From Eukaryota sp. GEM-RC1 (taxonomy: Eukaryota), in contig JAUFOQ010000006.1 of NCBI GenBank assembly GCA_040285855.1, positions 1,984,001-2,048,000 on the forward strand: a DNA stretch of 64,000 nt, read 5' to 3'. The notes under the pieces were generated by a model. The model was not told where the DNA came from. It was given only the letters and a program-made list of their open reading frames with translations, and made no database searches. The position numbers and the translations under genes are program-made. Positions within the stretch are counted from its first letter, which is position 1. Each line of letters begins with the position of its first letter. Shown in pieces: positions 3,001 to 58,446 of the stretch.

Positions 3001-4630
3001 AAACAATTCTTTGTTTTCGTGTTTGAGGAGTAAGACCTGATTGACTGAGTGGATCTCTGGTCCTGATTTTTTTGGAGACACGGATAGGTGTGACAGGAAC
3101 GGGTTTTAATACTGTAGGTGGTAATGGACTGGCTGGACTGATTTTTGATTTTCGTTTTGCAGGAGTAGCACCAGATGGCTCTCTTGGTTTGGACTTACGT
3201 GACTCAGGATGATCAACAGTCGTTACCGTTGGTGGTACAAAATAATTAATAATAGTCTCTCGAACTGAACCAGCATCAATGTCCTTGTTAGCGTTCTGTA
3301 ATTCATCTTTTACAGCTGAAACGTTAACTATATTGCGATAGTTCAAAGCATGTACAAATATTCTGATATACTCAAGGACATAGACTCCTCAGTCATTAGG
3401 TGTTTGTTTCTGGGTAACAGGTACAATGATAGGCCTATACTCAAGCACACTAAGTGCTGAATTCACTGTTGATAAGAACACATTGAAGCTACCAGATGGA
3501 CATTCTACGTTTTCTTCATCTAGATAAAAATCATTAGTGTCGTAATTTGGATCAATGAACAACCACTTTCTGTGTCGACAGTCGATAATCAACAACCCCC
3601 AGTGATAACCTCTGGTACCTGTATTATTAATAACAGGAGCAATGAAATATCGGCAATAACCATTATTTGTCAATTGTTGTATGATAAACTTCGTGAGTAA
3701 AACAACATCAAATTGTTGAGTGGTTGTATCCACAGCATTGTGCAACATTAGAATCGGAGAAATAAAGCATTCAACAGGATAATTATGTAATTTTAAGAGA
3801 TACAGACAATACTGATCAATAACTTCATCATCGATCCACTCATCAGGCAACAAAGTCTGTAAGGCTGATTCAGAAATCGGTCCTGGATTGGACTCAATAT
3901 CACCATCAGCGGTGAGGTCTTCTTTGAATGGATGACGGGAGGAGAAAACTATACGTAATATGAGACACAAAGCAGAAATAGATGATGAAACAACACAAAG
4001 GATCATCTGAGGAATATTACGAGACGAAGTCGGGGGTATGATGGAAAGCACATGAACACAATTCACATAGGCTGTTTCACTAGCGGAAACGAAAATAATT
4101 CTCCAACATCTCATTATACTACCTTGGTCTTGAGGAGCGTGTGAGAGTGAAGTAGTAAGGCGGCAGGCGGAAGAGTAACTCCAACATCTCATTATACTAC
4201 CTTGGTCTTGAGGAGCGTGTGAGAGTGAAGTAGTAAGGCGGCAGGCGGAAGAGTAACTCCAACATCTCATTATACTACCTTGGTCTTGAGGAGCGTGTGA
4301 GAGTGAAGTAGTAAGGCGGCAGGCGGAAGAGTAACTCCAACATCTCATTATACTACCTTGGTCTTGAGGAGCGTGTGAGAGTGAAGTAGTAAGGCGGCAG
4401 GCGGAAGAGTAACTCCAACATCTCATTATACTACCTTGGTCTTGAGGAGCGTGTGAGAGTGAAGTAGTAAGGCGGCAGGCGGAAGAGTAACTCCAACATC
4501 TCATTATACTACCTTGGTCTTGAGGAGCGTGTGAGAGTGAAGTAGTAAGGCGGCAGGCGGAAGAGTAACTCCAACATCTCATTATACTACCTTGGTCTTG
4601 GAGAGCGTGTGAGAGAATTGATGTCGACAT
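1..4630 (-). CDS. Putative polyprotein: repeat leader / 2A / Ulp1-like protease / PolB exonuclease-like domain / Fanzor (TnpB-like); one in-frame TGA, one frameshift, truncated by the window edge
   Basis: ORFs 3389..4654 and 170..3346 are in the same frame, separated only by TGA at 3389-3391 (..QKQTPND*GVYVLEYIRIFVHALNY..). Motifs: DIESNPGP; WIDDEVID..HWGLLIID..FID; DPIVSIS..TEKSMLTNF..PSLLISYD; YVATEIITNYKNN, PFPLSKSLIPNHIRFDT, ILSDGLSCSLL, IVAVDPN. Adding one A to the A-run at ~173-178 restores KKQLNDWK..KWKVFRYTAGER, matching the second Fanzor. First ATG is at 4630. Confidence 0.75.
3878..3928 (-). other. 2A-like ribosomal skipping (StopGo) peptide
   Basis: Translates FKEDLTADGDIESNPG|P, matching the D(V/I)ExNPG-P consensus, after a hydrophobic stretch. 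Confidence 0.8.
4101..4616. repeat. 78-bp tandem repeat, ~6.6 copies (26-aa unit SHAPQDQGSIMRCWSYSSACRLTTSL on the minus strand)
   Basis: Unit starts ctccaacatc at 4101, 4179, 4257, 4335, 4413, 4491 and 4569. Confidence 0.97.
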
Positions 4631-12473: not shown

Positions 12474-12660
12474 GTTACACATCTTGTATTACAGATCTTG
12501 TAAAACATATATTGTATTACTGATCTTGTGTTACAGATCTTGTATTACAAATGTTGTGTTACAAATGTTGTGTTACACATCTTGTATTACACATCTTGTA
12601 TTACGAATCTTGTGTTACAAATCTTGTAAAACACATTTTGTGTTACAAAAAGCACTTGTA
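12474..12660. repeat. 14-bp tandem array (TTACACATCTTGTA-like), ~13 copies
   Basis: atcttg and variants at 14-bp period: 12481, 12495, 12523, 12537, 12579, 12593, 12607, 12621. Confidence 0.92.
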
Positions 12661-12760
12661 GTTTTGTAAATTCAAATATAAAATAGTCAACAATTCAAAA
12701 GATCGAAGGTGAAAAAAATATCAATGTCAACAATTCATTACACATACGACACTTTCATTT

Positions 12761-12920
12761 CAAATGTTGTCATTACAAATGTTATATCACCAAATGTTGT
12801 CATTACAAATGTTGTCATTACAAATGTTATATCACCAAATGTTGTCATTACAAATGTTATATCACCAAATGTTATCATTACAAATATTGTCATTACAAAT
12901 GTTATCATTACAAATATTGT
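12761..12920. repeat. 15-bp tandem array (CAAATGTTGTCATTA / CAAATGTTATATCAC), ~10.5 copies
   Basis: Direct reading of the 15-bp period; shares the TTACAnATnTTGT core with the 14-bp array. Confidence 0.92.
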
Positions 12921-12923
12921 ATT

Positions 12924-13159: not shown

Positions 13160-13309
13160 TCAGACCTTTATGCATCTCGCAACTGCATCTTGGCTTTCAC
13201 CTAAGATGAGGTGAGTGTAGACGGCCCTGGTCTTCGTATCTTCAGATGGACGTCGACTGAGTTGTTTTAAGTCAATTCCTTGTAATAGCATCTCAAAAGT
13301 AAGTCCCAT
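13160..13309 (-). pseudogene. Tc1/IS630 transposase N-terminal HTH remnant 2
   Basis: MGLTFEMLLQGIDLKQLSRRPSEDTKTRAVYTHLILGESQDAVA aligns with MGYTYDMLFDANIDIRQLCCNASEDTIVRAVWTYYWLGKTQAQIA. Confidence 0.75.
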
Positions 13310-20872: not shown

Positions 20873-21789
20873 ATGACTTCACCTATATCTCCTTGGGAAT
20901 CGGTACAGAATCCTTCGTTTGTCCAAGTTCTCTCAACCATGTTTGGTCTTGCTATTCTTGCACCTATTAGAGTAGTTCTCCTAGTACCTCTATGTGTATC
21001 ATGTGCAATGAGTATGAAGATGATCTGCTTATCCCGATTTGTTAACAGTAAGCATTTCTCAAAGTTGCAGAAACTAACTGAACTTGTTACTCACTTCTAT
21101 GTCCGCTGTATACTCTTCATCGCTGGCTTCTATTCCATTACGGTGAAGGGAAGTCCAACCACTGATCAGAATGTACGAGGTATCGTTGCTAATCACTCGT
21201 CATGGATTGATACCATCATCATGGCTTCTCTTGTCTTTCCTTCCTTCATTGCCAAGAGTGATACTAAGAGGATCCCTCTAGCTGGTTCTACAGCCAAATC
21301 CTGGCTATCTCTATTCATTGACCGTAGTTCGAATGAAGATAGACAACGGGCATTAGTTTTAATTACTGAAAGAATGAGAAATACTAAGCTACCACCTCTA
21401 ATAGCTTTCCCTGAAGGAGGGACTAGCAACGGGAAGTATCTGACTAAGTTTCAACGGGGGCCTTCAATGCAGGGCTACCTGTTCAACCAGTTGTTATTAC
21501 ATACACATCTTCATTTAAACCTTCAGCTGAGGGATCGCCTTTTTGGTATGCTGTCTTGATGCTGTTGGCTCAGCCCATTGTTAAGGCCGAGGTAAGCTTC
21601 CTCCCACCTTATTATCCTAATGAACAAGAAGCTGGTGATCCTGTGTTGTTTGCATCTAATGTTCGTAAGGCAATGAGTGAGTGGAGTGGAATTCCTCTAG
21701 TTGAAGAAGGTTTTAGGGAAAAGATGGCGTTTGTAGAGAAAGTTTATGGAAACAAGTTGTACGGGCCGGTTAGAAAGAGGTGTTATTAA
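20873..21789 (+). CDS. Lysophospholipid acyltransferase (LPCAT/AGPAT family), frameshifted at ~21460
   Basis: NHSSWID, FIDRS and FPEGGTSNG motifs; C-terminal FASNVRKAMS. Confidence 0.88.
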
Positions 21790-48699: not shown

Positions 48700-49192
48700 C
48701 TATTGCAGATGCAGATGGAACAAATGCTTTTCATTTTTGGAGGTCGAAATTGCATTTCCTCCTAACGTGCTGGAGTAGTTTTCATTTTGGGTGAATACTA
48801 CTAGTAGTATCCCCATTTTACCAATTCCCCCACACACCCAATTCCCACAAACTCTTTTTACTTATAGGATACACTTTTGAGATGCTCTGGGACTCAAGAC
48901 TCGACTTAACGAGCATGTCTATCCACGCTTCGGAAGGCACCAAAGTGACGGCTGTTTGGTCCTATCTCTGGACGGGGAGAACCATCTTTCTTTCTTCCTT
49001 TTCTCGCAAAGTATGATCTCTCGCTGGATAAACAGTGCATATTCTCCTTCTTATGATAATCTTTCATCTTCTCATTCTGACCGTCACAAGCTGAAAGCAT
49101 ATGTTGACTTGGAAATCTTGATTCATTATGTTTTTCTTTTGTTCATAAAGTTAAGCCATATATGCCAGTCTATTATCACTATCTATTGTCTT

Positions 49193-50376
49193 TTAGTTGT
49201 CACAAGATGTGTAATACAAGATTTGTAACACAAGATGTGTAATACAAGATGTGTAATACAAGATGTGTAATACAAGATGTGTTTTACAAGATGTGTAATA
49301 CAAGATGAAACTATCAAAATTACCTATATTGTCCAATCTTTTCAAAATTAAATATAATTCAAATAAAACACACATACCAGTCTTTTCATCATTTTTCAAA
49401 TACTCTTTCAAAACATGAAACAATTCCACAAGCACATCACTACAATAACGTTCATCAACATTATCCTTATTAATCACATCGGTAATGTAACAGTTCCTTA
49501 TTGTTTTCACTTCCATACTTGATGCAGATTCAGATCCAATACAATCTAGTACATTATCGACAATTGACTGAATTCCAATAGTTAAGTCCACTCTCAATTG
49601 TTTGTAAGTAGCAACACGATTATACTCCAAAATAGGAGACAATGATATTGTTTCATAAGTCACATTGTCAGTTTGTTGATATTCACATATGGAATCACAT
49701 TTTTCATTTTCAAAGCTTTCAGTCTGAACTTCCTTGAGACAAAATCGTTTTTCATCATCAATAAGAGGAAACACTTGGGAACTTTTTCTTTCTATACCAG
49801 CACTGACATTCTTATTTAATAATAAATTCTTCGTTGGTAAAGGGGTTTTCTTCAAACGGGGAAGCGATGGTAGAGTAATGTTGCCTCGTGGTAATTGAGG
49901 AAGTTTAGACTTATTGACACAAATCTCAGCAGAATTTTTGTTAAAAATTGAGTCACAATTAATAAATTTGGGAGGAATATTAGTTTCATCTTCTTCAAGT
50001 TCATCATTTACAACAAAATCATCTAAACTTGTTGAAATTGTATCATTATCAGATTCATCACCAGAATCGGATCCTGATAGTACAGCTTCTGTTTCAAATA
50101 AATTTGATTTTTCGAAATGGTTTAAACGATTTTTTCCAAGTCAATAATTTTTTCATCAACATTATCAACAATAACTTCATCAACACAATGAACATCTTCA
50201 GGAACAACAACATCATCCGTAATTGGTTCACTCGATTCTGCACAAAAGTTTGCAAACAATGAATTAAAATGATTGAAATCTCGTTGAAGACAATGTTGAT
50301 TTCCCAAAACATACAAATCAATAGTTGATGGCTTAACAGGATGAAAAGTTGAATAATACCATTGATACAATTCCAA
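49193..50376 (-). CDS. Hypothetical protein antisense to Fanzor (probably one frameshifted gene)
   Basis: ORFs 50122..50376 and 49193..49855; ends within the 14-bp array. Confidence 0.4.
49201..49307. repeat. 14-bp tandem array, ~8 copies; reverse complement of the 12474-12660 array
   Basis: caagat at 49203, 49217, 49231, 49245, 49259, 49273, 49287 and 49301. Confidence 0.93.
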
Positions 50377-50401
50377 ATTTGGTACTGGATAACTTCTTAC
50401 A

Positions 50402-53350
50402 ATGCTTAAAATCTTTAAACTCCTCCAAGACCGTCTCAGTGTTATCCGAAATCAAAGAGCAACAGTAAGGGGTTCTAATTTTTGAAACATCTCCTTATTT
50501 GTGAGTTTGAAACACGTGGATGTGAATTAAATTTGATGAATCGTCATTACTTTCGGCAATATCTCTTAGAATCTTCTGTTTCGGAATCAAAAGAACGAGA
50601 TTTAATGTACGAACATGATTTTTTGGAGAAACGACTTCGTGAAATGGAGTTAATGTATGAACATGATCTTTTTGAGAAACGACTTCGTGAAATGGAGTTA
50701 ATGTATGAACATGATTTTGATTCGTATCCATCAGAACTTTCTGATTTGTTGGCATTAAATGAACGTAAATTAATGAAGAGCCATGATACAATGCCTGATT
50801 CTGATGATGCATCTGTTTCTGATCCGTTAGAACCTTCTGATTTACCCCTCTACACTAAGTTTTCAGTAGTCTTACCAGATTTGAAAAAACTGCTTAAACA
50901 CGATTCTATTAGACAAGTATTGAGACGGATGTATGTGAAGAAATCAACTGGTTCTTCAATTACAGAGTCAGAACTAGAAATGTCAAGAGCAGAGGCTCAA
51001 AAAGTGATTGACGATTTCCAAAAATCTTCAAGACTAGAAATGATCGAAAAAGAAAAAATTGCATTTCACTACTTGAACAACTTTTCTCCACTTCTACAAC
51101 AGTTGTCTGATGAAATTGGAACAAATCAAATTTCATTTCCTGATTCTACGTCAATGTCTCCCATATTTCATTACACTGCCAAACAAATTTCTACAAATTA
51201 TGCCAACAATATGGTCAAAAATTTTCATGATTATGTATTCAGATTCTTTAATCTGGTAACAAGAAAGAAAGTAAGACTTGAACAGATAAATGATCAAGTT
51301 GATAAGAAAGAATTGATTTCGAAATTGAATTCAGTCAGAGATTCGATTATCGATGGAAATTTTGATGACATTCCAATTGCAGATCACGAGATTTTCCCTA
51401 ATCCACGTGAAGAACTAACGTTGAGGTTTTTTTGCGTATTTGAAATTTTCATTGTTTCCAATGTTTTCAAAAAGAACATTTACTATTTACAGAAAGCAAA
51501 GCCGACAGAGTTAATTTCTCATGCTCTGTACATCAACCGAACTATACAATCTTTGTGTTTGGTTGATGGAAAACCAATCAGTGTAAACAACCCTTTTCCA
51601 ATGACGAAGACATTGATTCCTCAGCATATTCGTTTGGACACAGGTTGGATGAATGATAGATTTGTTCATATACGTGGCAAAAATGCAGATGAAATAAGAA
51701 AAAAGGTCTTTGATCAGGTCCTTACTGACAAAGCTGTGGCACCAACAAAATCATTTGTCTTTAGATATTCTTCAATTCTGACAGATGGAATTTCTTGTTG
51801 TTTGGTTTTAATGAGGAAAGATTTGGTTGATGAAGATGGAAATACTTTCAAAGATTTTACTGCTAAATCTCTCGGAACTGCGGAAAGATACATTCACTCT
51901 TTATCAAATGAGAATATTCACGAATTACAATTGAAAGAAAAAAAGAATTGTCGGTGTCGATCCCAATGAATATGATTTAATGTATTGTGTTTCAGAAAAG
52001 ACAGTCGATGAGCTTAAAGATGAAGATATTTCAGAAAATAATCCACTCAAAAAACGATTACCCTCAGAAATCAGAAGTAAGAAAAGAGGAGGAATTAAGA
52101 AAAGAAAGAAACAATTACAAGATTGGAAAAATTCGAATAATGATGTAAAATCAAAGAAAAAGGCTAAGCACAAATGGAAAAAGTTTAATTATACAGCTGG
52201 AGAAAGAGCTTACGATAGGAAATCTAAAAAATATCGTAAATCTGAAAATAGAAAACTGAAAGAATTTTCTATCGAATCACCAGACGAAACTGTCACTGAA
52301 AGACAACTTAAAGATTTTTTGGTTCTCCACTCTGATAGAATTCTTGTAACAGGAAGAGATGTCACTAACCAATTCTCCAATGCTGTATCAAACGGGGAAA
52401 GAAAGTCGTGTTTCAGTGACACATTTGGAACATATATTAAAGAAGCTGAAAGATATAACGTATATTTGAGTTCTTTCTACGAAGATGACTGGTTTAGAAA
52501 GAGGAAATTCCAAATTTATTCTAATAACCAACGTTCGGAGAAAAACATGCTGGAACGCTTCAATTTAACATATGGACCTCCAGAAGATGTCGTCATTGGG
52601 TATGGGGATTGGAGCTCAAAAGGTAAAACAAGAAAGGGCAAAACCTCTACTGTTAGAGGAGTGGAAATCCGTAAAATGTTAAGAAGATATGGATACCAAA
52701 TATTTCTTGTTGATGAATACAGAACAAGCAAGTGTTGTTCCAAATGTGCTAAGGAAAAATCAACTTTCGTAGAATGTGAAAATGTTTCGGAACTAAAGGT
52801 TCTTGGTCCCAAAGGTAAGAGACAGCTAAGAAGGAAGAAGAGAAAGTTAAGAAGAGAAATTTTGCTCAAAAACAAACAAGATCCTCTAAACCAGCGGGAT
52901 TTTTGGAAGCAGAGTGGGAGGTGAAGCAGAAGTCATTGGAAGAAGAAGCTAAATCCACACCCTGGGGACTGGTAAAGTGCTCAGATGCTGATTGTGGTAC
53001 TTATTGGAATAGAGACCTAAATTCTGCCATTAATATCTATTCCATCATTGAAGCAACGATCAATGGTCAAGGTAGGCCATCCGCTCTCGAGAGATCTAAA
53101 ACTCAAACAACAGATCTCAAGAGTGGTAAGGATACTTTGGCGAGAGACCAGAAGAAGAAGAAGACTGCGACCAAAAAGAAGAAAAACTTCAACAGGAAAG
53201 AACAAAACTTCGACAGGAAAGAAGAATACATGTGGAAATTGTGGCCAAGAAGGTCATAACAAAAGGTCATGCCAGAATCCACCAAAAGAAATGAGTTCGC
53301 CTAAAAGAAGAAGCGTAAAGTCAGTCAAGAAGAAGAAGGTCTCTCGTTAA
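50402..53350 (+). CDS. Fanzor1-type (TnpB-derived) RNA-guided nuclease with C-terminal CCHC knuckle; four homopolymer frameshifts
   Basis: VRGSNF(L)KH; YTAKQISTNYANN; PFPMTKTLIPQHIRLDT; ILTDGISC; IVGVDPN (RuvC-I, shifted frame at ~51950); IGYGDWS; VDEYRTSKCCSKC; CSDADCGTYWNRDLNSAINI (RuvC-III); CGNCGQEGHNKRSC. Confidence 0.85.
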
Positions 53351-53445
53351 TAACTTTAGTGTACTTTTAACGGTACACAGCGCAGTGGGCTTAGCTCACT
53401 GAGTGTCTGTGGTTTCGATACTCTAATCAAAATGAAAATTAACAA
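53351..53445 (+). ncRNA. Candidate Fanzor omegaRNA 3' scaffold / element end
   Basis: Hairpins GTGTAC..GTACAC, CAGTGGGC-TTA-GCTCACTG and GAGTGTC..GATACTC immediately after the Fanzor stop codon. Confidence 0.5.
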
Positions 53446-53504: not shown

Positions 53505-54264
53505 CAGGAGTTGGAAAAATTGCATTGCCAATTAATTGTTCTCAGTTTTTCAGAGACAATGAATTATTGCAATTATCACATGTGCTACAATTAATTGGGC
53601 AATTAATTGGTCTGTGATAAATTGACCATTTGCACTTAAAAGAAAGTTCAAAAGTTTGTTCTTTATGATAACAAAACTAGTTTTTCAGTGTACAATCAGT
53701 GTTCATTAACGTCTTGCAGGATATTGTGCGCTTAATACCGGAAAATTACCTATTGAGTTCGTTTTCTACAAAGTTGAACGGTCTGAGGCCTTTAATAACC
53801 AACTTCATTCATTTAAAGTATTCTGAGTATTTGTCTTCAATTACAAATGTGCCAAGAGTGCTCATTTGCCTTTCATCAAGTCATTGTGCTCCTGTTGAAA
53901 ATTAACATGCTTTGTTCTCAGATGGTTGGAAAGATTTGTTCACACGTTACCTTTCAATATCATTGCTTTGCACTTACAAGTGTAGTGTTGCCCTTTGACG
54001 TGAGCACTTTTTCCAGAATCGGACGGAGAAAAGAAAGTCAAGCACAGAGTACGATTGTATGTAGGTAAAGGAAGGAAAGTGTTTTATTGTACATCTGCAT
54101 TCTGTTATCTGTTTGTAATTTCTATTCATTTCGTGCATTTGAAACCCCCGTGATAATTGCAATTAATTGCCCAATTAATTGTCGTCCTATTTTGGGGCCA
54201 ATTACTTATTGCAATTAATTAATTGGCAATAATTTAATTGGCAATGCAATTTTTCCAACTCCTG
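53505..54264. mobile_element. hAT-type MITE (760 bp)
   Basis: 31-bp perfect TIR CAGGAGTTGGAAAAATTGCATTGCCAATTAA; 8-bp TSD GATATCAT at 53497-53504 and 54265-54272; subterminal CAATTAATTG motifs. Confidence 0.92.
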
Positions 54265-55013
54265 GATATCATATCAAAGTTAGTAATTCTTCTACTGTGG
54301 AATTCTTTTGGTGTGAATAATCCTGGAATTTGGACCTTTTAATTTGGAGACTTCCCCCTTTTCTGTTTTCCCCCCTTTTTGGAGGATCAGTTTCTGTCTC
54401 TTCTCCGTGTCTTTTAGTCTGTGTCTGTCACCTGAGATGTCGTGTTCGGTATAGTGTATATATCAGGGAAACTTGAACTGATTTCTTTCATACAGATTTC
54501 CATCTTCTATGAGCTAGGGCGTCGTTTCACATCTATGTTATCGCTTTGATACTTAATGAGTACATATTGGTTCTACATCTTCGATATCTTGAGGAAGTTC
54601 CTTCTCTTTCAACAACAACACTCTCTGCTGCAACATTACATTGACAACACTTATCAACCGGTGAATGTTCTGGTAAGTAGAGAAGGTACAATTCTTATGT
54701 GAGACATCTCAAATCCACGTCAGTCATAGCTTTTATTTCAAAAAACAATAAAGATCCATCAGCATCTGTTTACACGGTATGGAACAAACCCTAGATTTAG
54801 TGCTGACCTCGATTTAGTGCCGGTCCAAACAGTGGCACTATAGATCTTCAATAAACTATCCCTTTTATTCATTCGTTACTTAATGGAAGTTGTTGTTTCA
54901 ACACTACAAAATAGCATCTAACAGTGTATTAGTGACATCTGACTGATAACCGGAAACAGAACGTCTTGATTGATAATCTTAAATCTAGATTTGCCTGCGT
55001 TTTCTGTTTCTTT

Positions 55014-56102
55014 ATGGGGTATACTTATGACATGCTCTTCGATGCCAACATCGACATTCGTCAACTGTGCTGTAACGCCAGTGAAGACACAATTGTCCGA
55101 GCTGTTTGGACCTACTATTGGTTGGGTAAAACACAAGCTCAAATTGCTGAATACTATTGTGTGTCTCAGCCTACAATTAGCCGTTGGATAGCTTCAGCTT
55201 TTGAAAACAAGAAACCAAATGAGGAAGAACTTGATCCTCGTCTTAAACTTGATGCTGCTGATTTGTCCTTCATTCAAAACACGCTACATCTTCATCCGCT
55301 TCTGTATCTTAGAGAAATTGCATCCCTTGTTCACAAAGAGCGTGGCAAAAAAGTATCTGTATCCACTATTCAGAGAGCCCTGGTCAGAATGGGTTACACT
55401 CATAAACGTTGCAGAGCACTTGTTCGCAGAGCCAAGTTAGAACTAATTTTATCATTTGAAAACAGAATAAACCACCGATGTATTGTACTTATTAACCAAC
55501 TGGTTTTCATTGATGAAGTTTCATTTAGAGCATCAGACTTTCAAAGGTCTTCAGGTTGGTCACTGAAGGGTAACGAGATTGTTGTTGAACAAGTTGATCT
55601 CGCTTATCACAACATTTCTGCATGTGTAGCAATTACACAACACGGCTTTTTAAGTGCATTTATCCAATATGGGCATTTCTCTCGATTGCAATTTGTGAAG
55701 TTTATTCAAAATCTCTTATTTCATGGATATTTGGGAACAAGTGGTTTTGCTCGAAGCTGTATTATTTTGGACGGTTGTAAAATCCATGTAGATTTGAATA
55801 TTTCTCAGGCCCTGAGAAAAGCAGGAGTTGAGTATTTTGTGTTGCCTCCCTATTGTCCCGAAAGCAACCCTACTGAGGTATTTTTCAAAGTGTTTAAGTC
55901 AAAAGTACTAGACTTTTTTGAACATAACCCACGAGGAAACGAACTAGTAGATTTGTTTCGAGTTCTTGATACAGATATGCGGTTCTCTTGTCACAAAATA
56001 TTTGCACACTGTGGGTGGTCAAATGAAACCTTCTTCAAGTCAACTTACAGGACCAATTCAATGCTTGCTGCCAATTTAGCAGAAAAGACCACTAATAAAT
56101 AA
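55014..56102 (+). CDS. IS630/Tc1/mariner-superfamily DDE transposase
   Basis: HTH VSQPTISRW; LYLREIA..VSVSTIQRAL; catalytic VFIDE, IILDG, LPPYCPESNPTE. TIRs not found. Confidence 0.9.
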   Translation: MGYTYDMLFDANIDIRQLCCNASEDTIVRAVWTYYWLGKTQAQIAEYYCVSQPTISRWIASAFENKKPNEEELDPRLKLDAADLSFIQNTLHLHPLLYLREIASLVHKERGKKVSVSTIQRALVRMGYTHKRCRALVRRAKLELILSFENRINHRCIVLINQLVFIDEVSFRASDFQRSSGWSLKGNEIVVEQVDLAYHNISACVAITQHGFLSAFIQYGHFSRLQFVKFIQNLLFHGYLGTSGFARSCIILDGCKIHVDLNISQALRKAGVEYFVLPPYCPESNPTEVFFKVFKSKVLDFFEHNPRGNELVDLFRVLDTDMRFSCHKIFAHCGWSNETFFKSTYRTNSMLAANLAEKTTNK

Positions 56103-56440
56103 GTTATTTTTTATTTTCCTTGAATTACTAATCAGTGGTAGATGGGTTTTGATAACCAAAGAAAGCATGAGGATCAGGAACTTCGGAGGAACACTTTCAG
56201 CCTGTTGCATGGAAGAGGAAACCGAGAAAATTAATTAATGCATTCAATGATGAATTCAATTGGAAATTTAAAGATGGTGAAGGTTACACTTATAAAAATG
56301 ATATGGGTTGTATTTTAAGTGTATCATTCATGATATCACATCTAACTAAACCTAATAATAACTGTTTCTTTGACAAGCTTTCTATATTCGTATCCGAAAT
56401 TGATATTCTTCTAAATTCAAAAGTTAGTAATTCTTCTGCT

Positions 56441-58446
56441 ATGAACTTCCAAAGTTCCTTTGAAGAATGGCTTGCAGTGGATCCTAAAGGCCAAATCATC
56501 AGCAATCATCTTCAGTATTTTTTTCTCTATTTCCAAAGAACGCGGTTTTTGTAATTGGGTGACTCGCAATGTGTTGATGCTCTTTCTCCATCTCTTCAAT
56601 GGATTCTTTCTCTTCTTTCTAATTGTTGTAGTCAATTGGCCGGCTCTTTTCCATTGCCATTCACCCGCTGATTGCGCTGCAGTTGCTCTTCATTCAAAGC
56701 CTCTCTCCAATCTTAGTTTCTTCTCTGTCATTCTCCTTACCAGTTTCCTCGTTTACTTCTCCCATTCTATTTGGAACTTCATCAAAGACTTCCCTCACAT
56801 GCGTCTCATGAAATCTTTCTACACTGAAACTCTAGAAATCTCCAACGACGAACTCCAACTCATCCCCTTCCACTCCATCGTTGGCATTCTATCACGTGAT
56901 GACATTAGTGGAGAATCCATTGGAACAATTGCTTTAAAGCTCTGTCAAACTCTATGTCTTGAGGATAACACCATGCTTGCTCTCTTCCACTCCGAGATCC
57001 TCCCCCTAGATCAAAAGATCTTCAGTCTAGGACCTCTAAGAGTAGACTACTTTTCCAAGTCATTGGAATGGTTTCTGCGCAAGATCATTGTGAACCAATG
57101 CTGGGCCTTTCAAACAGTAGACGATGTTAAGTTCAACGTTCGATTCAAATTGTCTCTAGATGAGAGCAGACGGCGGGGGCTCAAGTGGACCTTGGTTTCT
57201 CTAATAACCGCTCCCTTTTCAGCCGTCTTTATCCTTGTTCATACCTTCTTTACTTATACTGAAGCCTTCTATGATTCAACTTCTCATGCTTCAATAAAGT
57301 CTTGGTCTAACAGGGCCAGGTGGACTTTTCGACATTTAAATGAACTTCCTCATGACTTTGATGAGAAATTACGAGGATCTTATAAGCCTGCTTCTCAGTA
57401 TCTTGGCTTATTTAAAAGTAGATTGTCTATTATTATATCTAGGTTTGTCATGTATATCTGTTCAGCGTTTGCTGCAGTTTTAATAGTGATGTTGTACATG
57501 TATGGGGAGAACGTCATCAACATTGAAATCTTTGGAAGTAATGGCAGAACATTACTTTGGATCTTGTTATCAGTACTGGTTCCAACCATAGCAATGACCC
57601 GGGGTTCACTCCCCGGTCCAGACTTTACTTTCCATACAAATGAAGCTCTAAAGCAGTTATTTGGAAGCCACGAGGTTCATTCCAGACAGTTGGAGGGGTA
57701 AAGCAAGCTCGTTGTCGACTAAGAAAGCGATCTCCTCAATGTTTTCACTACGAGTTCTTCAGCTTTTGTCTGAAGTTCTTTCGGTGTTTCTAACTCCTTT
57801 CATACTATTCTTTGTCGTTGTTCCACGTCTTGGTACTATGGTCCATTACCTTGATTCAATTGTGGACCATTATGTTGAGTCTTCTGATGGTTCTGATGAG
57901 TTGAAATGGGCTCAGTTTAAGCTAACAGATGATGGGAAGTTGGATACTAGAGTTGCTGTACATAAAGGACCAGAAAATGAAGTAGTTGTGAGAAACAAGA
58001 TTGTTTCTTCAATACTCCAGTTTGTAGCAGCCTGGCCTGAAGCAAGTTCTGAGATTGAGCATTTCCCTGCGTTTTTAGCTACTTTTCCCTCTCGAAAACC
58101 TGACGCTGTTGCTCAGGCTTTTGACGTAATGAGGTCTCAAAACATTAATATTCCGATTGCTGATCAGGATCATTGTCTGAATCCTCTTGCAAGTATGTCC
58201 TTTGTTCAGAGGTCTACTTATTACTCAACTTTGCATGATACTGCTATTCAGCAAATGAATCATGATCAAGGTTTAAAAGATATTGAAAATCCAATATCTC
58301 ATTCGGTTATTGGCGGTGTTTCTTTGACCAACACTGATTTGTCTAGGTCTCATGTACCTGAAAACGTGACGGAGAGAAGAAATTCGAAGAAACATGCGTC
58401 AATAGCTGTGGAAAAGTTGGGTCTTCTTGATAATGATAGTGATTGA
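56441..58446 (+). CDS. ATG9: Autophagy protein ATG9 (frameshifts at ~56520 and ~57660)
   Basis: WSNRARWTFRHLNELPHDFDEKLRGSYKPASQYLGLF; IPDSWRGKA..F..R...LLSE.LSVFLTPFILFF. Confidence 0.88.

Follow-up and report, generated by a model that had tools for sequence, protein, structure and literature searches.

A Fanzor1 gene whose first part appears replaced by a reversed helicase tail, likely within a deleted derivative of a Helitron-like element

Full-length Fanzor1 proteins bind an omega RNA that is transcribed across the right end of their element, with approximately 15 nt of flank acting as the guide; they read the TAM with the REC/WED part and cut empty donor sites, and repair restores the element. 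As to the described systems, SpuFz1 is represented by a single ORF between inverted repeats (according to the accessible text of PMC10432273), and thus a stand-alone Fanzor would not be new; members of the Fanzor1/Helitron2 families of Chlamydomonas often lack their 5' part and internal segments but keep an intact 3' end (PMC3627910, section 8). The gene considered here (copy B, positions 50402-53350, plus strand) is found in a 64-kb window, the whole stretch of DNA that was analysed, along with a paralogous Fanzor element at the window start (element A, carrying copy A); our sources were this window, public protein collections and loci that were retrieved. The reading we favor, with a probability of roughly 0.7, is that the first part of copy B has been replaced by the reversed tail of a PIF1-type helicase gene, that the gene likely yields no working nuclease, and that the locus is likely a deleted derivative of a Helitron-like element. 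The features of the locus are as follows.

48873-48886, minus strand: 14-nt motif, matching exactly element A 13287-13300 (plus strand); likely the left terminus
49193-50433, minus strand: remnant of a multicopy PIF1-type helicase gene: the 3' tail, beginning just past the last helicase motif, with an acidic extension
49202-49307, no strand: 14-bp satellite, 7.6 copies, also present in element A at 12475-12649
50434-50446, no strand: junction of the helicase tail (minus) and the Fanzor gene (plus), both cut at the 5' side
50447-51939, plus strand: Fanzor1 REC/WED part, beginning inside the first helix; break near 50480, TDG at 51781
50602-50715, plus strand: tandem repeat of 48 nt (16 aa), 2.4 copies, within an acidic insertion
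51940-52903, plus strand: RuvC-I DPN, GDW, RuvC-II glutamate, first CxxC and basic insert; breaks near 51940 and 52903
52904-53184, plus strand: second cysteine pair (52978), RuvC-III NRD (53008), RP motif (53074) and onset of a Lys-rich tail; break near 53185, at its end
53060-53135, plus strand: strong predicted hairpin pair inside the ORF, past RuvC-III; candidate first stem-loop of the omega RNA
53137-53350, plus strand: predicted long-range stem, 13 bp, pairing 53137-53149 to 53338-53350; the stretch that encodes the knuckle lies within it
53231-53272, plus strand: CCHC zinc knuckle; in sister P0178, as in related families, it shares a frame with RuvC-III
53355-53425, plus strand: additional hairpins are predicted; the right end may lie near 53377, 53406 or 53425
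53505-54264, no strand: separate insertion, a presumably hAT-like MITE of 760 bp; its 31-bp inverted repeats are perfect, further inverted repeats lie inside them, and 8 bp of target are duplicated

Copy B is a genuine Fanzor1, as the preliminary description had it, by the criteria laid out in the accessible part of PMC10711439 (a DPG-type RuvC-I motif and related features), since the RuvC motifs, the TDG motif and the C4 zinc finger are all present and since a model of the RuvC piece matches solved structures. The four ORF pieces (50479-51969, 51935-52924, 52819-53259 and 53021-53350), when read through from ATG 50536 with X at the breaks, give 937 aa with zero in-frame stops, aligning with relatives. 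The TDG motif of the WED domain, a Fanzor1 criterion, is found at 51781, and the DPN at 51959 aligns to the IDPN of SpuFz1, thus supplying the RuvC-I aspartate; GDW follows at 52604. The glutamate of DEYRTSKCC (52712) lies six residues before the zinc finger and is invariant across 60 aligned rows, in agreement with its earlier assignment to the rearranged RuvC site; it supplies the RuvC-II glutamate. The C4 finger, whose cysteines are split by a basic insert as had been noted (CxxC at 52736, CxxxxC at 52978), is followed by the RD of NRD (53008), one frame break being spanned, and CxxCxxxxHxxxxC occupies 53231-53272. The middle piece matches PDB entries of SpuFz1 (E 1.2e-8), PpFz1 (E 2.1e-8) and GtFz1 (E 0.003), and, with the first two of these matches, the motif set is far beyond chance. 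Absence of a RuvC fold had been named as grounds for rejecting the gene. The fold, with extended helices as in solved Fanzor1, is predicted for the RuvC piece of copy B, which was folded without RuvC-III: the model from 60 rows (pLDDT 79, pTM 0.67) supersedes an earlier one from 6 rows (pLDDT 50), all seven of its Foldseek hits with E<=0.001 are Fanzor1, and it superposes on the solved Fanzor1 group (SpuFz1 8gkh/9cey, PpFz1, GtFz1) with Z 11.2 and rmsd 4.7 over 197 residues. The C-terminal knuckle, also reported before, is, judging by reading frames, a true family feature, since sister P0178 and two related families have it in frame. The N-terminal repeat exists as well, its unit being 48 nt (16 aa) and not 15 aa.

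The start of the gene is a different matter. The earlier proposal was for a protein of approximately 980 aa from ATG 50402. However, the minus-strand ORF to the left of copy B has nine sister proteins, six of which extend upstream of the junction into PIF1 motifs, the family matching PIF1 (E 1.8e-9) and the Helitron transposase 7lcc (E 1.3e-6). In each of the three sisters that were tested, the match to the window (87-92%) ends at 50433, and thus ATG 50402 and the first 15 codons are helicase DNA of the opposite strand, as is everything else left of approximately 50446. A one-base break in this tail, near 50132, is read through by sister P0018. The similarity of copy B to paralog A begins at 50447. 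The upstream part of the helicase is absent elsewhere in the 64-kb window, no target duplication of at least 8 nt was found at the junction, and the ESM Atlas gave no usable match for the tail. Two other arrangements were considered and dropped: N-terminal extensions in other frames (50270-50400), as the DNA there is helicase, and a simple insertion of a Fanzor into a helicase gene, for which there is neither an upstream helicase remnant nor a duplication.

What has been lost can be estimated from the relatives. On a 46-position profile of the N-terminal strand and helix that includes A and P0010, the ATG 50402 model is placed on positions 31-45 only. With a profile from the 55 other relatives, A scores 9.5 bits and P0010 16.3 bits over positions 3-45, versus -3.6 bits for the ATG 50402 model, this profile being a weak one that gives even the true match of A only E 4.5 in six frames of the whole window. 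A search for sisters with the N-terminal piece, among longer proteins, found none. The missing segment maps, via P0004, to approximately residues 18-49 of SpuFz1, and the place of the N-terminal strand in a complete WED assembly is held by antisense helicase DNA. In SpuFz1, the WED residues H21, T22 and K25 contact the first guide-target pair and the RNA backbone (accessible text of PMC10432273). Copy B would therefore be short of approximately 30 core residues (the first WED strand and part of the first helix) and of its native start, and probably of an exonuclease domain as well, if the parent had one. With the equivalent of SpuFz1 18-49 lost, H21, T22 and K25 included, a working enzyme is unlikely; copy B is, from these alignments, likely truncated. 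The suggestion of a possibly intact, active nuclease is thus not supported, even when all the indels are discounted.

Nor does copy B stand alone, as it had been said to, because it has a satellite and an end motif in common with the larger Fanzor element A. The two elements share the 14-bp satellite, a collinear stretch of 380 bp, a small hairpin with a TTAAGT loop that precedes the 14-nt motif, and the exact 14-mer itself, all in the same orientation to the Fanzors. The collinearity score of the ends is 74 versus 42+/-7 in mononucleotide shuffles (0/1000 as high; 8/1000 under stricter scoring), and the Fanzors themselves are only 37% identical. Most simply, these would be large elements of one family, each bearing the satellite at one end and, at the other, a Fanzor that points outward, copy B likely being an internally deleted, non-autonomous derivative of such a Helitron-like element. 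The Helitron identity is suggested by the PIF1 helicase gene in a multicopy element (the nine sister proteins above) and by the precedent in section 8 of PMC3627910. The hairpin and the 14-mer that A and B have in common are candidates for the conserved end of a Helitron, a kind of element that makes no fixed target duplication; no Rep/HUH domain was found in the sister helicase models, all of which start inside the helicase. Against our reading, the helicase scores better versus cellular PIF1 than versus Helitron. Mechanistically, one deletion would have removed most of the helicase gene, the Fanzor start, the core residues and probably a polB-type exonuclease domain.

Element A extends from window position 1 to approximately 13300 on the minus strand, with a DEAH-type helicase in pieces, a 78-bp tandem array, a motif (3878-3901) that we take to be 2A-like from its pattern, and a polB-exonuclease-fused Fanzor1 that runs off the window start. 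The exonuclease motifs of this protein have degenerated, whereas P0010 and P0031 have kept theirs. Element A also encodes a weak Ulp1-like domain (E 0.15). A second satellite, of 15 bp (12755-12922), lies beyond the 14-bp one in element A only, and the gene of A beside the satellite has no detectable relation to the helicase tail of copy B, which also counts against our reading. In the gene models P0021 and P0024, the tail of the helicase family is spliced into host genes, one coding for a ubiquitin/UBA-domain protein and one for an FGGY kinase, which suggests that the element ends soon after the satellite. The host of the window is eukaryotic, its genes having short introns (kinesin and ATG9, for example).

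Copy B is also interrupted: its pieces join near 50480, 51940, 52903 and 53185, where the frame shifts by one base in runs of T5, A7, T5 and A5, respectively, which bears out the earlier account of single-base changes in A/T runs (here of at least 5 bases). The explanation that fares best after our own is an old pseudogene, in which truncation was accompanied by four real slippage frameshifts; it is compatible with the truncation, differs on the indels only, and we consider it a possible but clearly less favored reading. The density of breaks speaks for it, with 4 in 2,949 bp versus 0.84 expected at the host rate (P 0.011), or versus 1.69 when adjusted for runs (P 0.09), as does the fact that all four sisters are fragmentary, with one broken site in common, and as does the stop codon of element A at 3389-3391, presumably the position of the protease cysteine of its Ulp1-like domain. 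Against it, copy B contains no nonsense codon, 247 of 257 residues are identical to sister P0179, and the common broken site has the 9-mer of a break in the host gene ATG9. At this site (52903) all four sisters fail: three exit in another frame, and in one a predicted intron spans the site. An inherited lesion would explain this as well as a systematic miscall would; at 53185, sister P0178 passes unbroken into the knuckle.

We consider it probable, though by no means settled, that the four breaks are mostly assembly errors, because the host genes break likewise and because the 9-mer at 52902-52903 occurs twice in the window, the other occurrence being at the ATG9 break. That host genes show the same pattern had been stated before, and we count eight apparent frameshifts (21447, 28170, 34727, 41705, 47422, 56530, 57660 and 60060) in 28,009 bp of host coding DNA. 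Two of the eight are firm: at 57660, in ATG9, consecutive profile positions fall on adjacent bases, leaving no room for an intron, and at 21447, in what is presumably an acyltransferase, there are 0 possible introns. The other six are our reading, with formal intron alternatives. Four of the five single-base gains examined in the host breaks fall at one pentamer, TGGAA/TTCCA (post hoc P 2e-5 to 1e-3); this clustering suggests a context-specific miscall that would split gene models across the assembly. Introns were also considered for the breaks in copy B itself, with 1, 2, 12 and 6 candidates at 50480, 51940, 52903 and 53185, respectively. Those at the first two sites were rejected, as they would delete or corrupt conserved residues, including the RuvC-I motif, and those listed for the other two are mostly pyrimidine-poor or cut out conserved segments; an intron may nevertheless skip the basic insert, as in the gene model of P0178. 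The sister Fanzors P0178 and P0028 differ from the window at 52300 by an in-frame length of 29 aa inside the RuvC insertion.

Another explanation, improbable in our view, is that the junction near 50440 is a mis-assembly of two repeat families, the true locus being full-length. Both sides are indeed multicopy, at about 90-97%, and the assembly is error-prone; the left part, however, carries the satellite and the end motif of A in the same orientation, which is not expected of a random chimera. Very unlikely is an intact, active Fanzor1 (approximately 940-980 aa, from ATG 50402 or 50536) in which every break is an assembly error. In its favor, no catalytic or zinc residue is missing, the RuvC fold is predicted, the read-through has no stops and host genes break in the same way; against it, ATG 50402 is within antisense helicase DNA, nothing corresponds to the first WED strand or to part of the first helix, and a start at ATG 50536 would cost the remainder of the first helix too. 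The weakest explanation makes the Fanzor a cargo of the neighboring IS630/Tc1 transposase or of the hAT-like MITE, and it is very unlikely: Mariner/Tc1 and hAT elements are known as Fanzor carriers (accessible text of PMC10530073) and an unbroken DDE_3 gene is at hand, but the MITE is closed by ends and a target duplication of its own, which leave the Fanzor outside, and the sole link on the Tc1 side is an imperfect 18-nt match that leaves the transposase outside. Inverted repeats with a target duplication enclosing the Fanzor, as expected of a Tc1/mariner or hAT carrier, were not found, and both the MITE and the Tc1-type transposase are separate from the Fanzor element. The transposase gene (55014-56102, plus strand) has a near-identical sister, P0027, and only imperfect end repeats (54915-54933 and approximately 56127-56144).

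To return to the truncated copy, its 3' end looks intact and likely overlaps a structured RNA, as predicted by folding. The stretch at 53060-53135 is the strongest local fold (z -4.3, 0/200 shuffles); it was chosen once a scan had been made, the lowest z among 138 background windows being -2.9, and it occupies nearly the same place as the stem-loop of viral relatives. In 26 of the latter, the RP motif is followed by a covarying stem-loop, and a fixed motif with variable flanks marks where the element ends. More broadly, the compact viral Fanzor1 elements of L001-L117 have in common, approximately 120-170 nt past the RP motif, a covarying omega-RNA structure and a fixed right end with variable flanks (81 loci parsed, 29 distinct), making them ready candidates for guide and TAM prediction. 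A covariance model from the 26 viral right ends had no match near copy B among its 17 matches at E<=10, and a scan of Rfam gave five matches, all with E>3 and rejected. With no match to the viral model and with several candidate right ends, the omega RNA of copy B stays a prediction. A guide RNA from this end might, at somewhat less than even odds, serve full-length members of the family in trans.

The family itself is far from small. A search of 1.84 billion representatives yielded 1,185 matches at E<=0.001, the closest relatives being unannotated (hypothetical) proteins that are recorded under three NCBI isolate names. When the RuvC-II region was used for a midpoint-rooted tree, ten rows of this kind grouped together (support 100/99), apart from the 46 remaining Fanzor1 rows. 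One Fanzor1 family has at least 26 near-identical proteins; in this cluster, 12 of the 15 listed members possess the knuckle, as do P0178 and P0030, and 3 of the 15 are unbroken over 644 aa. Elsewhere, the knuckle is found in 1/67 representatives that have RuvC-III. Relatives with a full N-terminus carry a polB-type exonuclease (PF03104, E 8e-16 to 5e-13) with the acidic motifs kept, and a 2A-like motif is located upstream in four of the five checked. Our literature searches gave no description of Fanzor fusions of this kind (with an exonuclease, a knuckle or a 2A), and the supplementary Fanzor lists of four survey papers may contain them. These clade-level features mark an unusual branch of Fanzor1. 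Quite tentatively, we picture a Fanzor1 clade specific to protists and residing on giant Helitron-like elements, its protein released by 2A and joining an RNA-guided cut to a fused 3'-5' exonuclease of the proofreading type (a natural cut-and-resect editor), with, in some families, a knuckle encoded within an expanded loop of the family's own omega RNA, and with truncated copies as guide donors.

Copy B is thus unsuited to further work as a nuclease; its value is as a sign of a large Fanzor1 radiation that lacks annotation, and the interest is in the clade (the exonuclease fusion, the 2A-like peptide, the knuckle), not in copy B. If active, its relatives would show how Fanzors acquire accessory domains, would test whether a Fanzor aids the homing of rolling-circle elements, and would offer a natural nuclease-exonuclease fusion for making deletions.

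As to the known systems, copy B belongs to one clade (100/99) with the families recorded under Eukaryota sp. TZLM3-RCL (P0010/P0013/P0015 and P0031/P0180), GEM-RC1 and TZLM1-RC. All of these have the basic insert between the cysteine pairs; however, the TZLM3-RCL members possess the polB exonuclease and no knuckle, whereas copy B possesses the knuckle and no exonuclease. A knuckle like that of copy B is found in the P0035 cluster (Eukaryota sp. GEM-RC1) and in P0030 (TZLM1-RC). Among the compact viral and metagenome Fanzor1 proteins (L001-L118, approximately 650 aa), most of the best hits have 22-26% identity over approximately 700 aligned columns, and in these proteins' loci an omega-RNA-like structure starts just past the RP motif; their 89 distinct ORFs, from 114 of the 118 loci, contain no knuckle, and these loci had no match to the exonuclease query. 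The structurally solved SpuFz1 (Spizellomyces punctatus, PDB 8gkh/9cey), PpFz1 and GtFz1 resemble copy B in DPN/DExxTS/RD, the C4 finger and TDG, while copy B is a longer protein that has acidic as well as basic insertions and carries a CCHC knuckle at its C-terminus; it is devoid of the N-terminal WED segment, and no terminal inverted repeats were found for it. Finally, the Chlamydomonas CRe-1/2/3 Fanzor1-Helitron2 elements likewise present Fanzor1 in non-autonomous elements of the rolling-circle type, often deleted (PMC3627910, section 8). Copy B differs from them in that no target duplication was found and that its element is a putative Helitron, and in the helicase remnant that lies head-to-head with the Fanzor.
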